A stretch of DNA of 64,000 nt from Longimicrobiales bacterium. GTDB lineage: Bacteria; Gemmatimonadota; Gemmatimonadetes; Longimicrobiales; Gaopeijiaceae. The stretch covers positions 3,327,779 through 3,391,778 of the forward strand of contig CBDBJS010000002.1 in NCBI GenBank assembly GCA_965206455.1, in the 5' to 3' direction. The notes beneath the pieces were generated by a model. The model saw only the letters and a program-made list of their open reading frames with translations, searched no databases and was not told the origin of the DNA. This document shows positions 31,964 through 40,330 of this stretch, piece after piece. The translations under genes and the position numbers were made by a program. Each line of letters starts with the position of its first letter. Position 1 is the stretch's first letter.

Positions 31964-33526
31964 ATGCCTGGAACCCCCGAAACCAATGCGCGGTGGTTGG
32001 CCGCCGCCCTTCTTGCCCTGACCGCCTGCACTCCCCCCGAGCCCCGGGACGACGGGGCCCTGCGTTTCGCGGTCGCCCGCTTCCAGCACGAGACCTGCAC
32101 CTTCTGCCCGGGCGGCGACACCGAAGTCGAGGACTGGCTGCAGTACAGCGAGCCGTTGTCGGGTGAAGACCTTCTGAGTTCCGGTAGCTACGTCGGCGGC
32201 TTCGTGAAGCGGGCGCTGGAATTCGGGGACGTGGACCTGGTGCCGCTCACCTCGCCGGTCGGGGTCTTCGGCGGATCGTCCAGGAGCTGGAACACCAGGG
32301 AGACGTTCGACCACTTCCTCGACGCGATGATTTCCGACCTGCGCGCGGAGATGCCCGTCGACGGGGTCTACCTGGCCCTGCACGGCGCAATGGCCGTACG
32401 GGACGTCCCCCGCCCCGAGGCCGAGATCGCGCGGCGCTTCCGGGAAGTGGTCGGGCCGGGGGTTCCCATCGCGGGCACCTTCGACCTTCACGGCAACGAG
32501 GACGGCGAATTCCTCGAACACGCCGACTTCGCGTTCGTGACCAAGCGCTACCCCCACTACGACGCCTACATCCAGGGCGAGCGCGCGGCCCGGGCGCTGC
32601 GGCTCGCCTCACTGGGCGAATACGAATCCACCACGGCGACCCGGAAGCCCGGGATCATCACGGCCACCGTCCTGCAGTGGACCGGGCAGTCCCCTTCGAT
32701 GGACATCATGGAGCGGGCCCGGCGGTGGGAGGCGCGGGAAGACGACGCGTACGTGAGCATCTTCTACGGCTATCCCTGGTCCGACGTCCCCGACGTGGGC
32801 TTGACCGTGCACGTCATGACCAACGGCGACCAGGCCCTCGCGGACATGATCGCCGACGACATGGACGACTTCATGTGGCGCGTGCGGGAGGACTTTGCCG
32901 TCGGCGGCCACCCCGGCCCCGAGGAGGCCGCGCGGATCGTTGCGGCGGCGGTCGCGAGCGGCGAGACCCCCGTCGCGGTCGGCGACCACAGCGACCGGCC
33001 CGGCGACGCGACCCACATCCTGGGCGCCTTCGAGGCGGCCGGGATCGGCAACGTGCTGTACGGGACGATCACCTCACCCGCCACCCTGGAGGCGCTCGCG
33101 GCAGCCGGCGCCCGGCCCGGCGACCCCTTCCACATGGAGATCGGCGGCTTCACGCCATCGGGGGGAATGCCCCGGCGCGTCACCGGCACCGTGGAATATT
33201 TCGGCGAAGGCTTCGGCTACGACGCGATCGCCGTGGTCTCGTTCGGCGACGGCAACGTGGTCTTCCTCACCCCGGCCTACGAGCAGGTGCTCTACCCGGA
33301 CGCGTTCCGGATCGGCCCGATCGACCCCGACGACTACGACGTCTTCGTGGTCAAGTCGAGGGTCCACTTCCGGCGCGGCTTCGACGAGACGGGGTATGCG
33401 CGGTCCATCGTGGTCGTGGAGGCACCGGAGCCGTTCGTGGGCACAACCTTCCTGGACGCGCTGCCGTACGAGCATGTGGATCTGGGTGAGCTGTACCCGT
33501 ATGGGGTGCCGGCGGGGAGGCGGTGA
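31964..33526 (+). CDS. M81-family metallopeptidase (MlrC-like), lipoprotein
   Basis: Lipobox LLALTAC. RFAVARFQHETCTF is the N-terminal DUF1485/MlrC signature, and the length fits. Confidence 0.8.
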   Translation: MPGTPETNARWLAAALLALTACTPPEPRDDGALRFAVARFQHETCTFCPGGDTEVEDWLQYSEPLSGEDLLSSGSYVGGFVKRALEFGDVDLVPLTSPVGVFGGSSRSWNTRETFDHFLDAMISDLRAEMPVDGVYLALHGAMAVRDVPRPEAEIARRFREVVGPGVPIAGTFDLHGNEDGEFLEHADFAFVTKRYPHYDAYIQGERAARALRLASLGEYESTTATRKPGIITATVLQWTGQSPSMDIMERARRWEAREDDAYVSIFYGYPWSDVPDVGLTVHVMTNGDQALADMIADDMDDFMWRVREDFAVGGHPGPEEAARIVAAAVASGETPVAVGDHSDRPGDATHILGAFEAAGIGNVLYGTITSPATLEALAAAGARPGDPFHMEIGGFTPSGGMPRRVTGTVEYFGEGFGYDAIAVVSFGDGNVVFLTPAYEQVLYPDAFRIGPIDPDDYDVFVVKSRVHFRRGFDETGYARSIVVVEAPEPFVGTTFLDALPYEHVDLGELYPYGVPAGRR

Positions 33527-33615
33527 GGTGGGGGGGACGGTTGCTGAGATGGTGGCGGCGCTTGCGGCGGCAGCCCCGTGCGGGTAGTGTTGGCGCCCCT
33601 AAACGGAAGAAACCG

Positions 33616-35049
33616 ATGACCCAAGCCCCCAGCGCCAAATCTCTTGTCGAGCGCTTCAAGCTGAAGGAGCGAGGTCGCGAGCGTGGCCGGAGCGACCTGC
33701 CTTCGGAGCATCAGCCCACACTCGATGATGTCGAAACCGATGTAGTGGACTACTGCAACGGTCTCTTCGCGGAAAAGCGGGACGAGTACAGCAAGCACCG
33801 GCCCATCTTCGAGGAAAGAATGAGGCCGCCATCGGAGAGTCGCGGTGCGGACGCGTTGTTGGAACAGGCTTGCAAGGAACTGAAGGATGCTGTAGCGGAG
33901 GAGCGGCCAGATTTGGAAGGCCTGGCACGAGATGCACAACAAGCCATCGGTGAACTCAATCGTTTCAAGCGCGAAGAAGGGAGAACGGCCGACGCGGACT
34001 TCCCTGAGAGCCATCGGCTGCACTATGGGATCCTGGCGGCCTTGTTGGTATTGGAAACGTTGATAAACGGCATCTTCTTTGGGGCGAACGTTGCCGGCGG
34101 GCTCTTCGGAGGCATGAGCTACGCGGTTCTGATCAGCGCCGTCAACGTGTTGGGGCTCGGTTTCCTGGCAGCGACCATGTTCAGGTATGTCCAGCACCGC
34201 GATTCCCGTCGCAAGATCGGCGGGTTGGCGATCCTGGGCGTTGTTGTGGTCGTTGCAGTCTTCTGGAATCTCTTCGTAGCTCACTACCGCGAGGCCCTGG
34301 CGGAGGACTACCCACCCGCGCCCGGGACCGTCACCGCGGAGTCGTCGGCGTCGGAGCAGGAGATAGCCGCCTGCTGGAGGGGGCCCGACGAATCCGAGGC
34401 TGATCAGGAAGCTCTGTGTCTGTTCCGGGCAAGTCCATTTGGATTGGGCGGATTCTACTCGTACATGCTTCTCCTGATCGGACTTGCGATGTGCGCTTTC
34501 GCAGCTTTGGACTGGTTCAAGACGGATGACCCCTACCCAGGCTACGGCAAGAGAGAACGAAACCGAAGGCGGACCGAGGGAGCGCTTTCCGACGACCGGC
34601 GCGAACTTCTGGGCCGGGTCAGGGATATGCATGATGACGCCCTGCGAAGACAGCGCGGCGATTTCGTCGATCCGGTCGACTCCCGGGGCCTCGCCCTGAG
34701 CGCCTTCGACAAGCTTCTAAGGCGACATGGCGACCTTTGCAGCTTTGCCGACGACCTCGAAAAGAGCTGTAGTGGCGCTCTGGATATCTACCGGACGGCC
34801 AACCGCGAGGCCCGGTCCACTCCCGAGCCGCGCCTGTGGCAAGAAACGTGGGTATCCGACTGGCCTCGGCCGGAGCCGCCGAGCAACTCGGATCTCATGA
34901 CCGAGGCGGAAGCCGCGCAGCGCAGCCTCGATGCCCACACAGCCTTGGAGGAACGCGAGAAGAAGCTGCGATCCTGTCACGACGAGTGCCAAACCCTTGT
35001 GAACGACTTCACAAAGCTCGACCCACATGACAAGGCCGTTCCGACATGA
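33616..35049 (+). CDS. Gene A of candidate system: 4-TM protein with N- and C-terminal coiled-coil-like cytoplasmic regions
   Basis: 477 aa from ATG 33616. TM helices are LHYGILAALLVLETLINGIFF, MSYAVLISAVNVLGLGFLAATMF, LAILGVVVVVAVFWNLFVAHY and FYSYMLLLIGLAMCAFAALDWF. A Cys-containing ~50-aa loop lies between TM3 and TM4, and DDPYPGYG follows TM4. No family recognised. Confidence 0.7.
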   Translation: MTQAPSAKSLVERFKLKERGRERGRSDLPSEHQPTLDDVETDVVDYCNGLFAEKRDEYSKHRPIFEERMRPPSESRGADALLEQACKELKDAVAEERPDLEGLARDAQQAIGELNRFKREEGRTADADFPESHRLHYGILAALLVLETLINGIFFGANVAGGLFGGMSYAVLISAVNVLGLGFLAATMFRYVQHRDSRRKIGGLAILGVVVVVAVFWNLFVAHYREALAEDYPPAPGTVTAESSASEQEIAACWRGPDESEADQEALCLFRASPFGLGGFYSYMLLLIGLAMCAFAALDWFKTDDPYPGYGKRERNRRRTEGALSDDRRELLGRVRDMHDDALRRQRGDFVDPVDSRGLALSAFDKLLRRHGDLCSFADDLEKSCSGALDIYRTANREARSTPEPRLWQETWVSDWPRPEPPSNSDLMTEAEAAQRSLDAHTALEEREKKLRSCHDECQTLVNDFTKLDPHDKAVPT

Positions 35050-35864
35050 GCAAGCAATCGCGCCAGCGGGCAAAACAGCGCAAAGACCGGCTCGGCGTCA
35101 TCGTGGGTGGGTTCGCCGTGGCGATACTGGTCGTCCTTTTTCTTTGGGGCCAACGTGGTGGCCGCCGCCTCGATTCCTCAAACTGCCCGGAAGACCGGCG
35201 GTACGCGGCACAGATTGCGATTCTGGTCGATCCATCCGACACCTTGACCAGCGTGCAGGAGGGTTCGGCCGCTCCACGAATCCTGGAAGCCATCGAGCGC
35301 GAGGCGACCGAAACGACCGAGATCCGTGTGTACACCGTGGGTAGAGCGGGCCGAGGCGACACCGCCACCGTGCTGCGCCTCTGCAAGCCATCCCATCCCG
35401 ATAGCGTCTCGTCGTTGACGGGCAATCCCCGGACGGCAGCCAGGCGGTACGACGAGAGTTTCCTAGCTCCTCTGGAAGGGACCTTGGCCGCACTTTTGGA
35501 TGTCGAGGGTGACACCATCTCGCCGATCATGGAGGGTATCCAGGCCGCTGCCGTGAACGCTTTCCGGCCACGCAACACGAACATCCCACGCCAACTCCTG
35601 ATCGTGTCCGACATGATTCAGAATTCCGCCGATCTCTCGTTCTACACGGATCCCATAGGCTTTGGGCCCCTTTCTCGAGACCCCAACTACGGAACGCTCA
35701 GGGTAGATCTCTCGGGTGTCGCCGTCACGGTGTTCCTCTTGGCGCGGCGGGGTGAGGCCGGCCGGATTCAGGCTGGACCCCTGCGCGGCTTCTGGGAGGA
35801 CTATTTCATCGACCAGGGAGCCGAGCAGGGCGCCAGGCCCAGATGGATCAACGTGGAAGGATGA
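35046..35864 (+). CDS. Gene B: N-terminally membrane-anchored vWA-like protein
   Basis: ATGA overlap with gene A (35046-35049). Basic N-terminus plus TM (VIVGGFAVAILVVLFLW). MIDAS-like spacing ILVDPSDTLTS ... GDTISPI ... LLIVSDMIQN. Confidence 0.6.
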   Translation: MSKQSRQRAKQRKDRLGVIVGGFAVAILVVLFLWGQRGGRRLDSSNCPEDRRYAAQIAILVDPSDTLTSVQEGSAAPRILEAIEREATETTEIRVYTVGRAGRGDTATVLRLCKPSHPDSVSSLTGNPRTAARRYDESFLAPLEGTLAALLDVEGDTISPIMEGIQAAAVNAFRPRNTNIPRQLLIVSDMIQNSADLSFYTDPIGFGPLSRDPNYGTLRVDLSGVAVTVFLLARRGEAGRIQAGPLRGFWEDYFIDQGAEQGARPRWINVEG

Positions 35865-37321
35865 ACAGCACGGCCGGACAATTCAGCGCCGCGGCATCCA
35901 GGGAAGCCCGGAAGCAGCACCGGGAGTCATGGCTCATCGTCCTGGGCATCGGCTTTGTGATCATCATCATCGGCAACCTTCTCGGCTTGGGACCCTGGTG
36001 GCTTGCCATCGCGGTCTCCGTTGCGATGGGCGGCTTTGCCTATTCCGTCCGGGATGTCGATGTATCCGGTGACGCCAAGGGCGATTCCATTTACTACCTT
36101 GGCCTGCTTTTTACATTCGTGGCACTCGTCGCGGCACTGATTGCTTTCGATTGGGAGACTTCCGATGCTGCCGGGAGCAGCACATCGGGAGCAATCCGCA
36201 ACTTCGGGATTGCCCTGCTGACCACAATCGTCGGCCTTGCAGGGCGCGTCTGGTTTTCAATGTCTCAGGAGTCGCCAGGCGACATAGCACACACGGCCAA
36301 GTCAGCACTCGAAGAAGCCGTGTCCGCAATGAAGGGGAGCCTCGACCGGGCACGTGACGACCTGGATACGTTGGCCGGCAAGTTCCGGGAGTCGACAAAG
36401 GATCTCGGGAAGACCACCGCCACGATTGCCGCCAGCGCCAAGAAGGCCGCCGAGACCTCCGAGTCTCTGGACAAATGCTCGGCGGAAGTCGCAGGAGCGG
36501 CCAAGGACTTTACTCGCGAAATGGGCGACTTCCGCACTGCCATGGGGGCAGGGGCAGACGCCGCAGCCAGCTTGAAACGATCTCTTGGGGGAATCGGGGA
36601 TCAAACCAAAGTGTTCGGAACACGCTTTGAGACCCTCAGCGAACAAATCGAGCAGATCCACTCCGCTTTTGCCCGAATCAACGGCGTGGCAGGGCCGTCC
36701 GCCGATGCAATCGCCGCCACTTCGCAGGGAGTGTCACACGCAGCTGCCGAGGCATCTTCCCTCGGCAGGACGTTGGCTGGTCTGCGGCACAGCGCCGGGA
36801 AGGCGCGCAAGGCGTTCGACGGAGTCGCCGACTCCGTCGATGCGACCCGTGTGGTGCCCGCCTTGGAAGAGGCTGCAGCTCAGGTTGCCGAAGGAGGCCG
36901 GCATTTTCGGAGCGTCGGTGTACAAGCGGCCGCCACGGACGACGAGTTGGCGGGCTTGGGGGAGTCCGCCAGGAACGCTAAGGACAGCATTGCCTCGGTC
37001 TCGGACACCGCTCGATCGATCCGCGAGCACATGGATGGAGCGCGCAACGACCTCTCGTCCAGCGTCAGTACGGTTCAGAAGCATACGCGAGGCTTGAACG
37101 CGGACCTGGATGCGATGGAGGATCAGTCCGTCAAACTATCCGGCGCTCTTGCGCGTGTTGAGCGGCAGGCACAGCGCTTGTCCGAAGACATTCGCCAAGC
37201 CCGCGCCAGCGGCGTTCCCGGATCGCTGGCGGTGAGCCCCTTCACCTGGATCGCACGTGCATTCCGGCGCGTGGCTCGGGGTCGGAGCCAAGCCGACCCA
37301 ACCTCCCGGCGTAGACGCTGA
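35861..37321 (+). CDS. Gene C: MotA/ExbB/TolQ-like channel protein with ~330-aa Ala-rich helical tail
   Basis: ATGA overlap with gene B (35861-35864). It has 4 TM helices. YLGLLFTFVAL and FGIALLTTIVGLAG lie 37 residues apart, versus GLFGTVWG and ALLATAIGL 35 residues apart in E. coli ExbB as I recall it. A long helical C-terminal region follows. Confidence 0.55.
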   Translation: MNSTAGQFSAAASREARKQHRESWLIVLGIGFVIIIIGNLLGLGPWWLAIAVSVAMGGFAYSVRDVDVSGDAKGDSIYYLGLLFTFVALVAALIAFDWETSDAAGSSTSGAIRNFGIALLTTIVGLAGRVWFSMSQESPGDIAHTAKSALEEAVSAMKGSLDRARDDLDTLAGKFRESTKDLGKTTATIAASAKKAAETSESLDKCSAEVAGAAKDFTREMGDFRTAMGAGADAAASLKRSLGGIGDQTKVFGTRFETLSEQIEQIHSAFARINGVAGPSADAIAATSQGVSHAAAEASSLGRTLAGLRHSAGKARKAFDGVADSVDATRVVPALEEAAAQVAEGGRHFRSVGVQAAATDDELAGLGESARNAKDSIASVSDTARSIREHMDGARNDLSSSVSTVQKHTRGLNADLDAMEDQSVKLSGALARVERQAQRLSEDIRQARASGVPGSLAVSPFTWIARAFRRVARGRSQADPTSRRRR

Positions 37322-37339
37322 CCGGACGGCATTGCGCCC

Positions 37340-38638
37340 ATGCTCCCCGCCGAGAAGACACATTACCGGAAGGGCTTGGCACTGGGACTAACCCTGGCCG
37401 AGACATTCAGTATCGTCGTCTTCATCCTGCTACTGGCGTGCGCGGTTCTGCTACGGCAGGAGCAGAGGCAACGGGACACGGCCCAAGCGCAACGGGACAC
37501 GGCCCAAGCGCAGCGGGACACGGCCCAAGCGCAGCGGGACACGGCCCAAGCGCAGCGAGACACGGCCCAAGCGCAGCGGGACACGGCGCGAATCGATCTC
37601 TCAATCACTCAGGAGATGCTGCGCGCAGACAGCATTTCCTGGGGGAATGCGGACGCGTGGTTCGACTACGCCAGACGGCTCCGCCAAGAGTTGGAAGCTG
37701 AGCAAGTCCGCGCCGAGACGACCGAAAGGGACCTTGTCCGCGAGAGGGCTCGCGCTTCGGAAGCAGAGGCACTGTTGGCCGCTAGGGCATCGAACGATGA
37801 TCTCGCGGAGCGCACCCTGGAGCAGGCCGCCGAGCTTGATGCGCTGAAGGACTCCGTTTCTGGGAGCGAGCGCCGTTTTAATGAAGTGACAAGCCGCCTG
37901 GATTCACTTGAGACGCGTCTCGCCGAGGCGGAGCAGATCGGCCGACTCGTGCGCGACGGCATCGCGGAGCGCAGAGACCTTAGTCCCGAACAAGCGTGGG
38001 AAGTTGTCGAGCAAGCTGCTCATGCGGAGCGCCTGGCAGATTCCTTGTCGGGCGCCCGACGAACGATCGGTGCCATGGACCGCGAACTGCGGGAGGTCCA
38101 GCAGTTGCTGCACGGTGACACTGCCGCTGCGGTCGATTCACTTCGGACCAGCCTAAGCGACAGCCGCTTCCGCGAAGACACGCTTCGTGGCCGAATCAGA
38201 GACGCCGAGCGGGAGCGCGATGACGCAATAGGCCGGGCCGAGTACCGCGAAACCCAACTTCAACAGTTGCGGCAAGGGTCCGGAATCGATCCTCCCCCGT
38301 GCTGGCTGGACGGAGAGGGCAGTCCCGAGTACATCTTCCGCATCGAGTTAATGGACAGAGGCATGAGACTGTTCAACATCGCGCCTGAGCGACGCGTCAA
38401 CAGCGATCCCGAGGCAATGAGGTATGCGGCATCGATCGAGGACGGACGCATCTACGCTCCTGCCGAGTTTCTACGCCTTGCCTTGCCGTTCTACTCTATG
38501 GGCACGGCCCGAACCGAGGCATTCGGTCCGATGGGCTGCCGATTCTGGATTCGACCCGTTGACCTCACGGGCGACCGCAAGGACATTTTCCAGGAGCGAC
38601 AGGAGCAGCTGTGGCGGCGTTTCTGGTTCCGATGGTAG
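37340..38638 (+). CDS. Gene D: MotB/ExbD/TolR-like single-TM protein with long coiled coil and unknown C-terminal domain
   Basis: The TM helix LTLAETFSIVVFILLLACAVLL has an embedded acidic residue. It is followed by (QRDTAQA)x5 and ~250 aa of coiled-coil-like sequence, then a ~120-aa domain with two Cys (PPPCWLDG, PMGCRFW). Confidence 0.5.
   Translation: MLPAEKTHYRKGLALGLTLAETFSIVVFILLLACAVLLRQEQRQRDTAQAQRDTAQAQRDTAQAQRDTAQAQRDTAQAQRDTARIDLSITQEMLRADSISWGNADAWFDYARRLRQELEAEQVRAETTERDLVRERARASEAEALLAARASNDDLAERTLEQAAELDALKDSVSGSERRFNEVTSRLDSLETRLAEAEQIGRLVRDGIAERRDLSPEQAWEVVEQAAHAERLADSLSGARRTIGAMDRELREVQQLLHGDTAAAVDSLRTSLSDSRFREDTLRGRIRDAERERDDAIGRAEYRETQLQQLRQGSGIDPPPCWLDGEGSPEYIFRIELMDRGMRLFNIAPERRVNSDPEAMRYAASIEDGRIYAPAEFLRLALPFYSMGTARTEAFGPMGCRFWIRPVDLTGDRKDIFQERQEQLWRRFWFRW
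37469..37590 (+). repeat. Tandem repeat: 5 full plus 1 partial copies of a 21-bp unit CA(A/G)CG(G/A)GACACGGCCCAAGCG
   Basis: Units at 37469, 37490, 37511, 37532 and 37553, with a partial unit at 37574. Full units differ only at positions 3 and 6. In frame they encode QRDTAQA heptads inside gene D. Confidence 0.95.
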
Positions 38639-38716: not shown

Positions 38717-40330
38717 ATGAGCGGCCACTGGGGATTCTACGGGCGCCACGAAGAACTCGGAGGTCTGGTACGCGCCCTCCGGGCCGATCGCTGGTTCTTC
38801 GGCGCGATCCGCGGGCGCCGACGTGTAGGCAAGACCGAACTCGCGCACCGAGCTCTCGACACGGTCCGGGCAGAAGACCCCGGCCGCCCCATCCTGTACC
38901 TGCAGCTCGTGGACGAATCCGAGTCGGGCATGGCAACCCGTTTCCGCCGGGCTATTGCTGCGGAGCCCTCCCTGGATCCCGCCACGATCGACCTCGACGA
39001 TCTCAGGGACCATCACGGCGTCGCGAACGCCGTCGGCCGGATCTGCGCGGCGCACGGGATCGTGGTTCTGGACGAGTTCCAGGTGTGTCATCGGGGGCCG
39101 CTACGTCCCCTGGCTTCCTCGCTTCAGTTCGAGGTGGACAACCTGCAGCGTCGCGACCGCCGGGGCGCGCTGATTCTCCTGGGGTCGGTGCAAACCGAGA
39201 TGGAAGAACTGTTGCACGGCCAGCGGTCGCCCCTGTTCGGGCGCGCCACCTATTCGCTCACCCTTCGGCCTTGGCGCATCGCCACGACACTGAATGTCGC
39301 CGGTCGCCATCGCGGTGCCGACCCGCACCGCTTCCTCACACTGTGGACGCTGTTCGATGGTGTTCCGAAGTATTGGCGGCACTTCGCGGGTCTTACTGGC
39401 AGCCTCCCGGGGCAAGGTAATGACAGGTGGACCATGGACTTGGCCAACCGGCTCTTCCTCGCGCCGGACGCCCTGCTGCGCGACGAAGGGGAAGTCCTCC
39501 TGGGACGCGAGCTCCAGGGCGACAGCCTGCGCATCCTGCGCGAGGTCGCGACGCGGCGTTTCTCGACCCTTCCCCGTCTGCGGCGGGTCTTCCCCGGCCT
39601 GGCGGATCTCGAAGAGCGCCTCGAAGCGCTGGTCTTGGACTTGCGCCTGGTGGGTCAACGCATGCCGATGTTTCGCGGCAACCGTCAGGCCGCCCGGTAC
39701 GTCGTTTCCGATCCGTTCCTACGAGCCTGGCTGAACGTTTTCGAGTCCGCCGCAGGCAGGGCGCAGGTGCGCCAAGCGCACGGTATCGACAAAGCACTGC
39801 TTCGAGACTTGCGCACTCTGGAGGCCTACGCCTTCGAAGAAATCGTGCGGGAGGCGAGCCATCAGGCCTCGCGACTGGGTGCGGACGACTTCCCGCTTAC
39901 GGAACTGGCAGGCGGTTACTGGAACAGGCCGGAAGCCGGAGGCGACATCGAGATCGACTACATCGCGTGGAACGCGGACGAGGTCAGGGTTCGCTTCGGG
40001 TCTTGCAAACGCAATGCGCACGCGCATGACGAAGCCTCGCTGAACCGCTTTCGTGGCCATGTGGACCGATATCTCAACACGGACCACGGTCGGCGCTTCC
40101 GTGACGCCCACACCGAATACGCGCTGTTCTCGCCCGTCTTCGAGCTCGACCAGCGGTCCGCGCTGGAAGGAGGCGGCTGGATCTGCCGGGACCTTTCGGA
40201 CTTCCGGCGGATGCTTTCCCTACCCCTCAAACCAACATCCCGTCCGCAACCACCTCCACCGTCGCAGGCCCGTTGTACGCCAACGCCTGCGCCAGCGCGT
40301 CGTCCAGCTCGCTCGCATCCCGCACCCTGA
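38717..40330 (+). CDS. Gene E: Arch_ATPase (PF01637-type) P-loop ATPase with DUF234 PD-(D/E)xK-like C-terminus
   Basis: FYGRHEELGGL...GRRRVGKTEL (Walker A), VVLDEFQ (Walker B), and the C-terminal GDIEIDYIAW...VRFGSCKR nuclease-like motif. The last ~40 aa are Pro-rich and overlap the convergent gene by 104 nt. Confidence 0.8.
   Translation: MSGHWGFYGRHEELGGLVRALRADRWFFGAIRGRRRVGKTELAHRALDTVRAEDPGRPILYLQLVDESESGMATRFRRAIAAEPSLDPATIDLDDLRDHHGVANAVGRICAAHGIVVLDEFQVCHRGPLRPLASSLQFEVDNLQRRDRRGALILLGSVQTEMEELLHGQRSPLFGRATYSLTLRPWRIATTLNVAGRHRGADPHRFLTLWTLFDGVPKYWRHFAGLTGSLPGQGNDRWTMDLANRLFLAPDALLRDEGEVLLGRELQGDSLRILREVATRRFSTLPRLRRVFPGLADLEERLEALVLDLRLVGQRMPMFRGNRQAARYVVSDPFLRAWLNVFESAAGRAQVRQAHGIDKALLRDLRTLEAYAFEEIVREASHQASRLGADDFPLTELAGGYWNRPEAGGDIEIDYIAWNADEVRVRFGSCKRNAHAHDEASLNRFRGHVDRYLNTDHGRRFRDAHTEYALFSPVFELDQRSALEGGGWICRDLSDFRRMLSLPLKPTSRPQPPPPSQARCTPTPAPARRPARSHPAP

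Follow-up and report, generated by a model that had tools for sequence, protein, structure and literature searches.

The glycosyltransferases FutA, FutB and beta-(1,3)GalT of Helicobacter pylori contain in-frame 21-bp heptad repeats that act as length-variable stalks, termed 'enzymatic rulers' (PMC2806470, citing Nilsson et al., 2006, PMC1413829), and the copy number of these repeats differs between strains and even during infection, with 7 versus 4 units (PMC2806470). In ZorB, the short distance between the outer domain and the membrane unit has been argued to hold the motor inactive as long as the envelope is undisturbed (PMC11946911). Here, we describe a 21-bp tandem array in gene D of a four-gene cassette (A-B-C-D) of a Longimicrobiales bacterium, within a 64,000-nucleotide stretch of DNA (assembly GCA_965206455.1, contig CBDBJS010000002.1, positions 3,327,779 to 3,391,778 of the forward strand), hereafter the window, in which all positions are counted. 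With a probability of roughly 65%, we read the array as a fixed, species-specific, in-frame expansion from two to six units, forming a membrane-proximal spacer in a protein that resembles B-type motor subunits.

The 21-bp array in gene D and its copy number

With Tandem Repeats Finder (TRF), one array was detected, which spans 37468-37587 and has 5.7 copies of a 21-bp period at 96% matches, without indels and with a score of 219. In the codon frame that opens at 37469, units 1 and 2 are CAA CGG GAC ACG GCC CAA GCG, units 3 and 4 open with CAG CGG, unit 5 opens with CAG CGA and unit 6 is CAG CGG GAC ACG GCG CGA ATC, the whole array (37469-37594) encoding (QRDTAQA)x5 followed by QRDTARI. The five full units differ solely at positions 3 and 6, both of which are synonymous third positions; an earlier note on this DNA had described five full and one partial 21-bp units differing only at these positions, and the codon reading agrees with it. 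The array is in frame with the open reading frame (ORF) 37340-38638 (+ strand, 432 aa), giving MLPAEKTHYRKGLALGLTLAETFSIVVFILLLACAVLLRQEQR-(QRDTAQA)5-QRDTARIDL, and starts at residue 44, five residues past the sole hydrophobic helix of the protein (approximately residues 13-38). Short ORFs in the other frames or strand over the array (37363-37608, 37422-37604 and 37438-37701) are by-products of the repeat. Across the whole genome (4.43 Mb, two contigs), 22 arrays had a period of at least 9, at least 4 copies and at least 90% matches, among which the gene D array ranked fourth by score and was the sole 21-bp one; the genome-wide rarity of such arrays excludes a chance origin.

A word-indexed search retrieved 150 homologues of gene D, nearly all the closer ones being 404 aa long, 28 residues shorter than the protein of the window, and those with a named source came from Gemmatimonadota metagenome-assembled genomes (MAGs). 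At E <= 0.001, an exhaustive phmmer search retrieved 465 proteins. The 28 residues by which the protein of the window is longer aligned exactly with the array, and the orthologues read LLRFEQFQRDTAEAQRDTARVDL, that is, two units, encoded by CAG CGC GAC ACG GCC GAG GCG and CAG CGC GAY ACC GCC AGG GTC (QRDTAEA-QRDTARV). This imperfect 21-bp direct repeat can itself serve as a slippage substrate. Within the same genus, the gene was present in 12 of 24 other species, and all 12 carriers matched residues 1-55 and 70-432, the two matches overlapping by 14 residues, which corresponds to the 404-aa form. No paralogue of gene D was found in the genome of the window. Because all of these congeners have the 404-aa form and the genome holds no second copy, the six-unit state is specific to this species. 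The earlier note had called the expansion recent, and the orthologues, in which the repeat is present but mostly as two diverged units in 404-aa proteins, the 12 congeneric species included, support a recent and lineage-specific event leading to six units here.

The 90%-identity protein cluster of gene D had two members, both of 432 aa and with one difference (M338L). The first lies on the 3.69-Mb contig of the window and the second on a contig of 5.7 kb from a different ENA sample (L003), which is 99.91% identical to the window over 5,668 bp and carries the same array base for base. Part of the region was present in 13 public runs, of which four, from four studies, were examined (X1, X4, X5 and X6). 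The within-species evidence consisted of Logan k=31 contigs, none of which spans the array, and de Bruijn graphs were simulated for alleles of 1-9 full units in four combinations of the position-3/6 variants, three of which occur in the window. The pieces from X1 and X5 (ending at 37522; 37507-37543; 37514-37557; starting at 37528) were exact unitigs of the window allele a-a-b-b-c (unit types in Table 1), and those from X4 and X6 (one ending at 37497, a 45-mer and, each with one mismatch, a 36-mer and a piece starting at 37504) were unitigs of a-a-a-b-c, which is the window array with CAA replacing CAG in unit 3 (window 37513). The polymorphism at 37513 could have arisen through a point change or through unequal exchange that moved the boundary between unit types. 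The graph alone cannot count identical adjacent units, but unitig multiplicity can: the depth ratio between two short unitigs is expected to be 2:1 for five full units and 3:2 for six, and the observed ratios were 7.6/4, 8/4, 6.7/3 and 4/2 (1.9-2.2), consistent with five in all four runs. Two assemblies and four runs thus agree with an array of five full units and the partial one, with a single synonymous base as the only polymorphism seen. No copy-number heterogeneity was seen among these samples, a soft negative in that it is read from unitigs. Logan k=31 contigs can thus deliver the allele pattern and multiplicity of short tandem arrays via graph simulation, but no spanning evidence.

Expansion or collapse of the array by mis-assembly would be a trivial explanation, and short-k assemblers do break at it. 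However, the array is just 126 bp long and can be spanned by single reads, the 3.69-Mb contig and the independent contig of another sample have the array in identical sequence, and the unitig sets of the four runs match the simulated graph. Such an artefact is hardly credible, and the array is real. The earlier note had further suggested ongoing slippage or recombination and a phase-variation-like mechanism. At a locus of this kind, frequent copy-number change within populations would tune stalk length on ecological time scales. The near-identical units do offer a slippage substrate, the two alleles could come from the boundary shift rather than from point mutation, and in-frame heptad repeats vary among strains in the H. 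pylori glycosyltransferases (PMC2806470). The copy number was nevertheless the same throughout the two assemblies and the four runs, the 90%-identity cluster comprises only the two 432-aa members, and a 21-bp unit, being a multiple of three within an ORF, cannot shift the frame and cannot give on/off switching. Neither suggestion was borne out, and a contingency locus appears very improbable; length within the species is stable in these samples and looks like a fixed change, not a switch.

The spacing from the transmembrane (TM) motif LAETF to the VDLxIxxEML motif, measured with a position matrix in 155 scored homologues, was 33 residues in 134 sequences. The other spacings were 26 (n=3), 40 (n=6), 47 (n=3), 54 (n=1) and 61 (n=3, all from this species), with off-heptad values of 29 (n=1, a doubtful distant match), 30 (n=1), 37 (n=1) and 44 (n=2). 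The length classes at this site were thus -7, +7, +14, +21 and +28 residues and, in a few cases, -3, +4 and +11, and approximately 11 of 13 inferred length events were multiples of seven; the exceptions (-3, +4 and +11) have one offset in common, and P0097 equals P0093 plus one heptad. The heptad-stepped length changes anticipated in the earlier note are therefore found across the family, and its estimate of approximately 1 nm per unit is right for a helix. Copy number differs between lineages, being two in most, three in L026 (QRDTAEA twice, then QLDTARV; +1 unit), four in L042/P0089 (QRNIAEA, ERDMAES, QRDVAEA and QRDTARA; +14, missed by the matrix and read by eye) and six here. Furthermore, other unit types occupy the same site in P0107 (QEALNET / QEALNEI / KEELDET, +2 heptads), in P0120 (AQAERDE twice, then ARVERDE, an ERDEAQA-type unit, +3 heptads) and in P0117 and L038 (ELEDTQD / ELEDRQV). 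This recurrence with unrelated unit sequences points to a heptad-periodic helical element at the site.

The expansion might also be neutral, a permissive linker after the TM helix having gained 28 residues by slippage without consequence, with heptads that reflect nothing but the 21-bp unit. The orthologues already have two slippable 21-bp direct repeats, the unit is polar and Ala-rich and lacks core residues, and the prevalence of the short form among the scored homologues (134/155) suggests no general pressure to lengthen. In MotB, large parts of the post-plug linker can be deleted without loss of function. Neutral slippage fits less well with the whole-heptad steps taken by the unrelated unit types QEALNET, ERDEAQA and ELEDTQD, which argue for a periodic structural constraint, with the peptide identity of the five units, whose differences are synonymous only, and with a copy number fixed across all samples. 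We thus regard neutral slippage as possible, though unlikely.

Gene D, gene C and the A-B-C-D cassette

Table 1. Positions in the window of the cassette genes and of the parts of gene D
Feature	Position	Strand	Remark
Gene A	33523-35049	+	First gene of the cassette
Gene B	35046-35864	+	Second gene of the cassette
Gene C: four predicted TM helices, ~340-aa helical tail	35843-37321	+	Candidate partner of D, remotely MotA/ExbB/ZorA-like
Gene D, 432 aa: N-terminal TM helix, repeat, four more long helices, C-terminal alpha/beta domain	37340-38638	+	
Single TM helix of D, ~residues 13-38, with Glu21 invariant in alignment A1	37376-37453	+	
Five full 21-bp units, (QRDTAQA)x5	37469-37573	+	Types a,a,b,b,c: a = CAA CGG, b = CAG CGG, c = CAG CGA
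Sixth, diverged unit, QRDTARI	37574-37594	+	Counterpart of the second ancestral unit, QRDTARV, in orthologues
C-terminal domain of D, ~residues 320-432, with two invariant Cys (PPCW ... CRFW/F)	38297-38635	+	

AlphaFold2, run with alignment A1, predicted an unbroken helix over residues 4-95 of gene D, across the TM helix and the array, with a block predicted local distance difference test score (pLDDT) of 93-96 for residues 21-70 that goes down to 54 by residues 91-100. Later helices were predicted at 104-149, 156-212, 216-257 and 262-311, followed by the alpha/beta domain at 320-432, and the whole model had a mean pLDDT of 78 and a predicted template modelling score (pTM) of 0.35. The array may be helical in vivo, though a confidently predicted helix does not show oligomerisation. 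The two Ala residues of the unit are spaced i,i+2, not three or four apart, the best a/d register of the unit uses Thr and Ala, and the downstream register (L87, I90, L94), if extended backwards, would place Arg at position a. In residues 155-200 and 225-250, on the other hand, 75-88% of the a/d positions are hydrophobic. Because the unit contains no core hydrophobic residues, a canonical coiled coil in the array is unlikely. An alanine-zipper reading of the unit was rejected on the i,i+2 Ala spacing, and a single-alpha-helix (SAH) reading is unlikely since the unit has no i,i+4 salt-bridge pattern. Heptad register would be conserved only if the segment supercoils, as in a supercoiled pair.

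If the segment is fully helical, the 28 extra residues correspond to approximately 4.2 nm. Between the TM helix and the C-terminal domain, the 404-aa form has approximately 245 helical residues in four or five segments, which would extend over approximately 36 nm if straight. The distance from the inner membrane to the peptidoglycan in Escherichia coli is roughly 9 nm (PMC11946911). Since 36 nm far exceeds this distance, the helices of gene D probably fold back, and the array then probably lengthens only the first, membrane-proximal helix, from approximately 29 to approximately 57 residues. A periplasmic ruler of the kind suggested in the earlier note is at most a possibility in the topology that we infer, and the helical region is too long to form one straight rod across a periplasm.

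Gene D gave nothing meaningful in Pfam, PADLOC or NCBIfam, ten of its homologues likewise gave nothing in Pfam, and no Pfam family was found for any of the cassette proteins A-D. Profile searches of the PDB returned coiled-coil noise only with the whole D family and bleomycin-hydrolase noise only with the C-terminal domain, and Foldseek with the full D model returned helical proteins only, all at E > 0.5. The C-terminal domain is conserved far past the phylum, with an invariant Cys-Trp (PPCW-type), a second Cys (CRFF/W), Asp, Lys and Phe. The two invariant Cys residues suggest an oxidising, extracytoplasmic location, and the N-terminal flank (K6, R10 and K11) weakly fits an N-in topology. The invariant Glu, E21, sits in the TM motif RGLxLGLTxAE, which, always with Glu, was found by a strict pattern in 67 of 104 distant relatives. 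Leads for D in the ESM Atlas were ExbD, MotB_plug and OmpA clusters.

Gene C has the invariant motifs YYLGLLFTF and FGIALxTTIxGLxGRV. Its start is uncertain (35843-35863), the longest ORF being 492 aa and the call in L003 486 aa, and its homologues align from M7 in the numbering of the longer version, a residue that is nearly invariant. The only functionally meaningful PDB match of the gene C membrane-domain profile was 8vvn_C (E 0.44, on both conserved TM motifs), deposited as a MotA/TolQ/ExbB proton channel domain-containing protein (696 aa, five chains), which we take to be a ZorA-type chain. With hhalign, the gene C motifs paired with the ExbB/TolQ proteins of the same genome at P 0.006-0.009 and a probability under 3%, and two distant C homologues matched PF01618 in the right region below threshold (16.3 and 16.7 bits versus a cut-off of 22.9). 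In addition, PADLOC gave weak ZorA matches on the coiled-coil tail of gene C (E of at least 4e-4), and the ESM Atlas lead was to MotA_ExbB clusters. These sub-threshold matches suggest that gene C is probably a remote MotA/ExbB-like protein, and on balance we favour C and D as a stator-like pair of the A/B type. A Zorya system was considered and rejected, PADLOC finding no ZorC-G and nothing for A, B or D. Outside the window, the same genome has a 904-aa frame (L008, G000:C2:1896139-1896372) with a PF01618 match above the cut-off (26.3 bits) and a very long helical region after it, which looks ZorA-type.

Of 41 related loci, 37 kept the order A-B-C-D, and the cassette recurred in distant homologues, D always being the final gene. 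The cassette (33523-38638; products of approximately 480, 270, 480 and 400 aa) spans Longimicrobiales, other Gemmatimonadota and Rhodothermales MAGs (loci L001, L002, L010-L045, L048 and L050), several of them from sponge or coral metagenomes, and is patchy within the genus (12/24 species). Shorter versions occur elsewhere, and that of L048 lies beside Tn7-like genes (TnsA and TniQ), a patatin and nucleases. One Longimicrobiales genome, OY762557.1, contains two diverged whole cassettes (L022 and L029) with D of 404 and 426 aa. For gene B, the Atlas suggests a vWA-like fold. Downstream, gene E (38717-40330, + strand) has a full-length match to the PADLOC candidate defence protein PDC-S27, a candidate ATPase (E 2.5e-118), and weak Pfam matches to ATPase_2, AAA_14 and DUF234; its membership of the operon was rejected, since it neighbours the cassette in this species alone and is missing there from the other 40 loci.

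Two further repeat regions were noted in this genome outside the window. The top-scoring short-period array of the genome, at G000:C1:459274-459555, is a 33-bp tandem repeat (8.5 copies, 91% matches), which would be an 11-residue (hendecad) repeat if coding and in frame. A cluster of long tandem repeats at G000:C2:2037000-2175600 has periods of 72, 144, 216 and 282-324 bp and up to 7 copies, and some of its consensus units resemble leucine-rich-repeat coding sequence.

A scenario for the expansion

We propose the following course of events. The ancestral 21-bp pair (QRDTAEA-QRDTARV) most likely grew from two to six units by replication slippage or unequal recombination, and the six-unit array would then have been fixed in this species. 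The first extracytoplasmic helix of D would have become 28 residues longer, directly above the membrane-embedded Glu. D is probably the single-pass, acidic-residue-bearing B-type partner of gene C; the repeat would lie on the extracytoplasmic side as a membrane-proximal spacer, moving the helical region and the Cys-containing C-terminal domain away from the membrane. The family would tolerate or select whole-heptad length changes at this one site.

Several observations weigh against this scenario. The acidic residue of D is Glu, whereas it is Asp in all known B subunits, and an OmpA-like or ExbD-type domain was not found in D by Pfam, NCBIfam or PDB sequence searches, a distinct two-Cys domain being present instead. 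On the side of its partner, gene C of the window had no PF01618 match in the Pfam scan, and Foldseek with the model of its membrane domain (pLDDT 77, pTM 0.63) matched generic four-helix bundles, with MotA, ExbB and ZorA chains absent from the results; for the proteins of the window themselves, the MotA/B relationship is below every significance threshold. With Leu, Ile, Val, Met and Phe all missing from the repeat unit, its sequence does not support a canonical coiled coil, and the array may be a lone helix, a helix that associates weakly, or a linker that is partly flexible or disordered. A plain alpha-helix turns 700 degrees per heptad, and four added units would turn the downstream part by approximately -80 degrees. 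Length changes in multiples of seven are expected from 21-bp slippage alone and are no proof of register selection. Finally, the copy number was derived from unitig patterns and low word depths (2-8x), the Logan contigs breaking inside the array.

If the C/D pair is stator-like, length at the site would be a plausible tuning parameter, following the distance argument that the Zorya study made for the ZorB outer domain and the membrane unit (PMC11946911). A more far-reaching version, which we consider decidedly unlikely, would make the array an evolvable spacer that sets the envelope reach of the Cys-containing domain in a new Glu-based MotB/ZorB-like subunit, tuned per lineage in 1-nm steps (2, 3, 4, 5 or 6 units; Gemmatimonadota and Rhodothermales), in a widespread, undescribed four-gene stator-like system. 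If true, it would be a natural counterpart of the ZorB linker-length logic and of the Lpp-length experiments.

Comparison with known systems

The array of gene D shares its general design with the H. pylori stalks: in both, in-frame 21-bp units of one heptad each separate a membrane-associated part from a globular domain, and the length varies by seven residues at a time. Unlike these stalks, which position an enzyme relative to a glycan, D has a constant copy number within its species and is not an enzyme of a known type. The coiled-coil ruler of WbdD is a related case. Helical connectors whose length is altered by in-frame heptad repeats are thus already known, and the array is a further case, in an uncharacterised protein family. 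It marks the one site in the D family where length is free to vary, in whole heptads, which provides a concrete structural constraint for studies of A-B-C-D, though the cassette itself may be of more interest than the repeat.

The array can also be set beside the spacers of the Braun lipoprotein Lpp and OprI, which likewise have heptads rich in Ala, Gln, Arg and Asp in an envelope helix. The length of Lpp sets the width of the periplasm. The NCBIfam Lpp/OprI alanine-zipper family matched D weakly over residues 25-82 (E 0.015, 15.8 bits versus a cut-off of 43). Unlike in Lpp/OprI, the Ala residues of D are spaced i,i+2 rather than at a/d, and its anchor is an inner-membrane TM helix, not a lipid.

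Among the 5:2 motors, D resembles MotB, PomB, ExbD, TolR and ZorB in having one N-terminal TM helix whose cytoplasmic half carries a conserved acidic residue, and it lies directly downstream of a multi-TM gene that has TM motifs like those of MotA/ExbB and, as in ZorA, a long helical tail. Its extracytoplasmic part would begin right after the TM helix, as in B-type subunits, and its outer domain has two conserved Cys, the peptidoglycan-binding domain of ZorB also having disulfides. In contrast to these subunits, D has Glu in place of Asp, no OmpA-like peptidoglycan-binding domain and no recognisable plug, approximately 245-270 helical residues are inserted in it, and no family model reaches threshold; furthermore, unlike in Zorya, genes for ZorC, ZorD and ZorE do not accompany the cassette. 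If C and D are a stator-like pair, the array of D would take the place of the plug and linker of MotB and of the alpha1 helix of ZorB, a position at which the peptidoglycan-binding domain of ZorB is directly attached. Should C and D turn out to form a new Glu-based 5:2 motor, its activation could be governed by how far the outer domain sits from the membrane unit.

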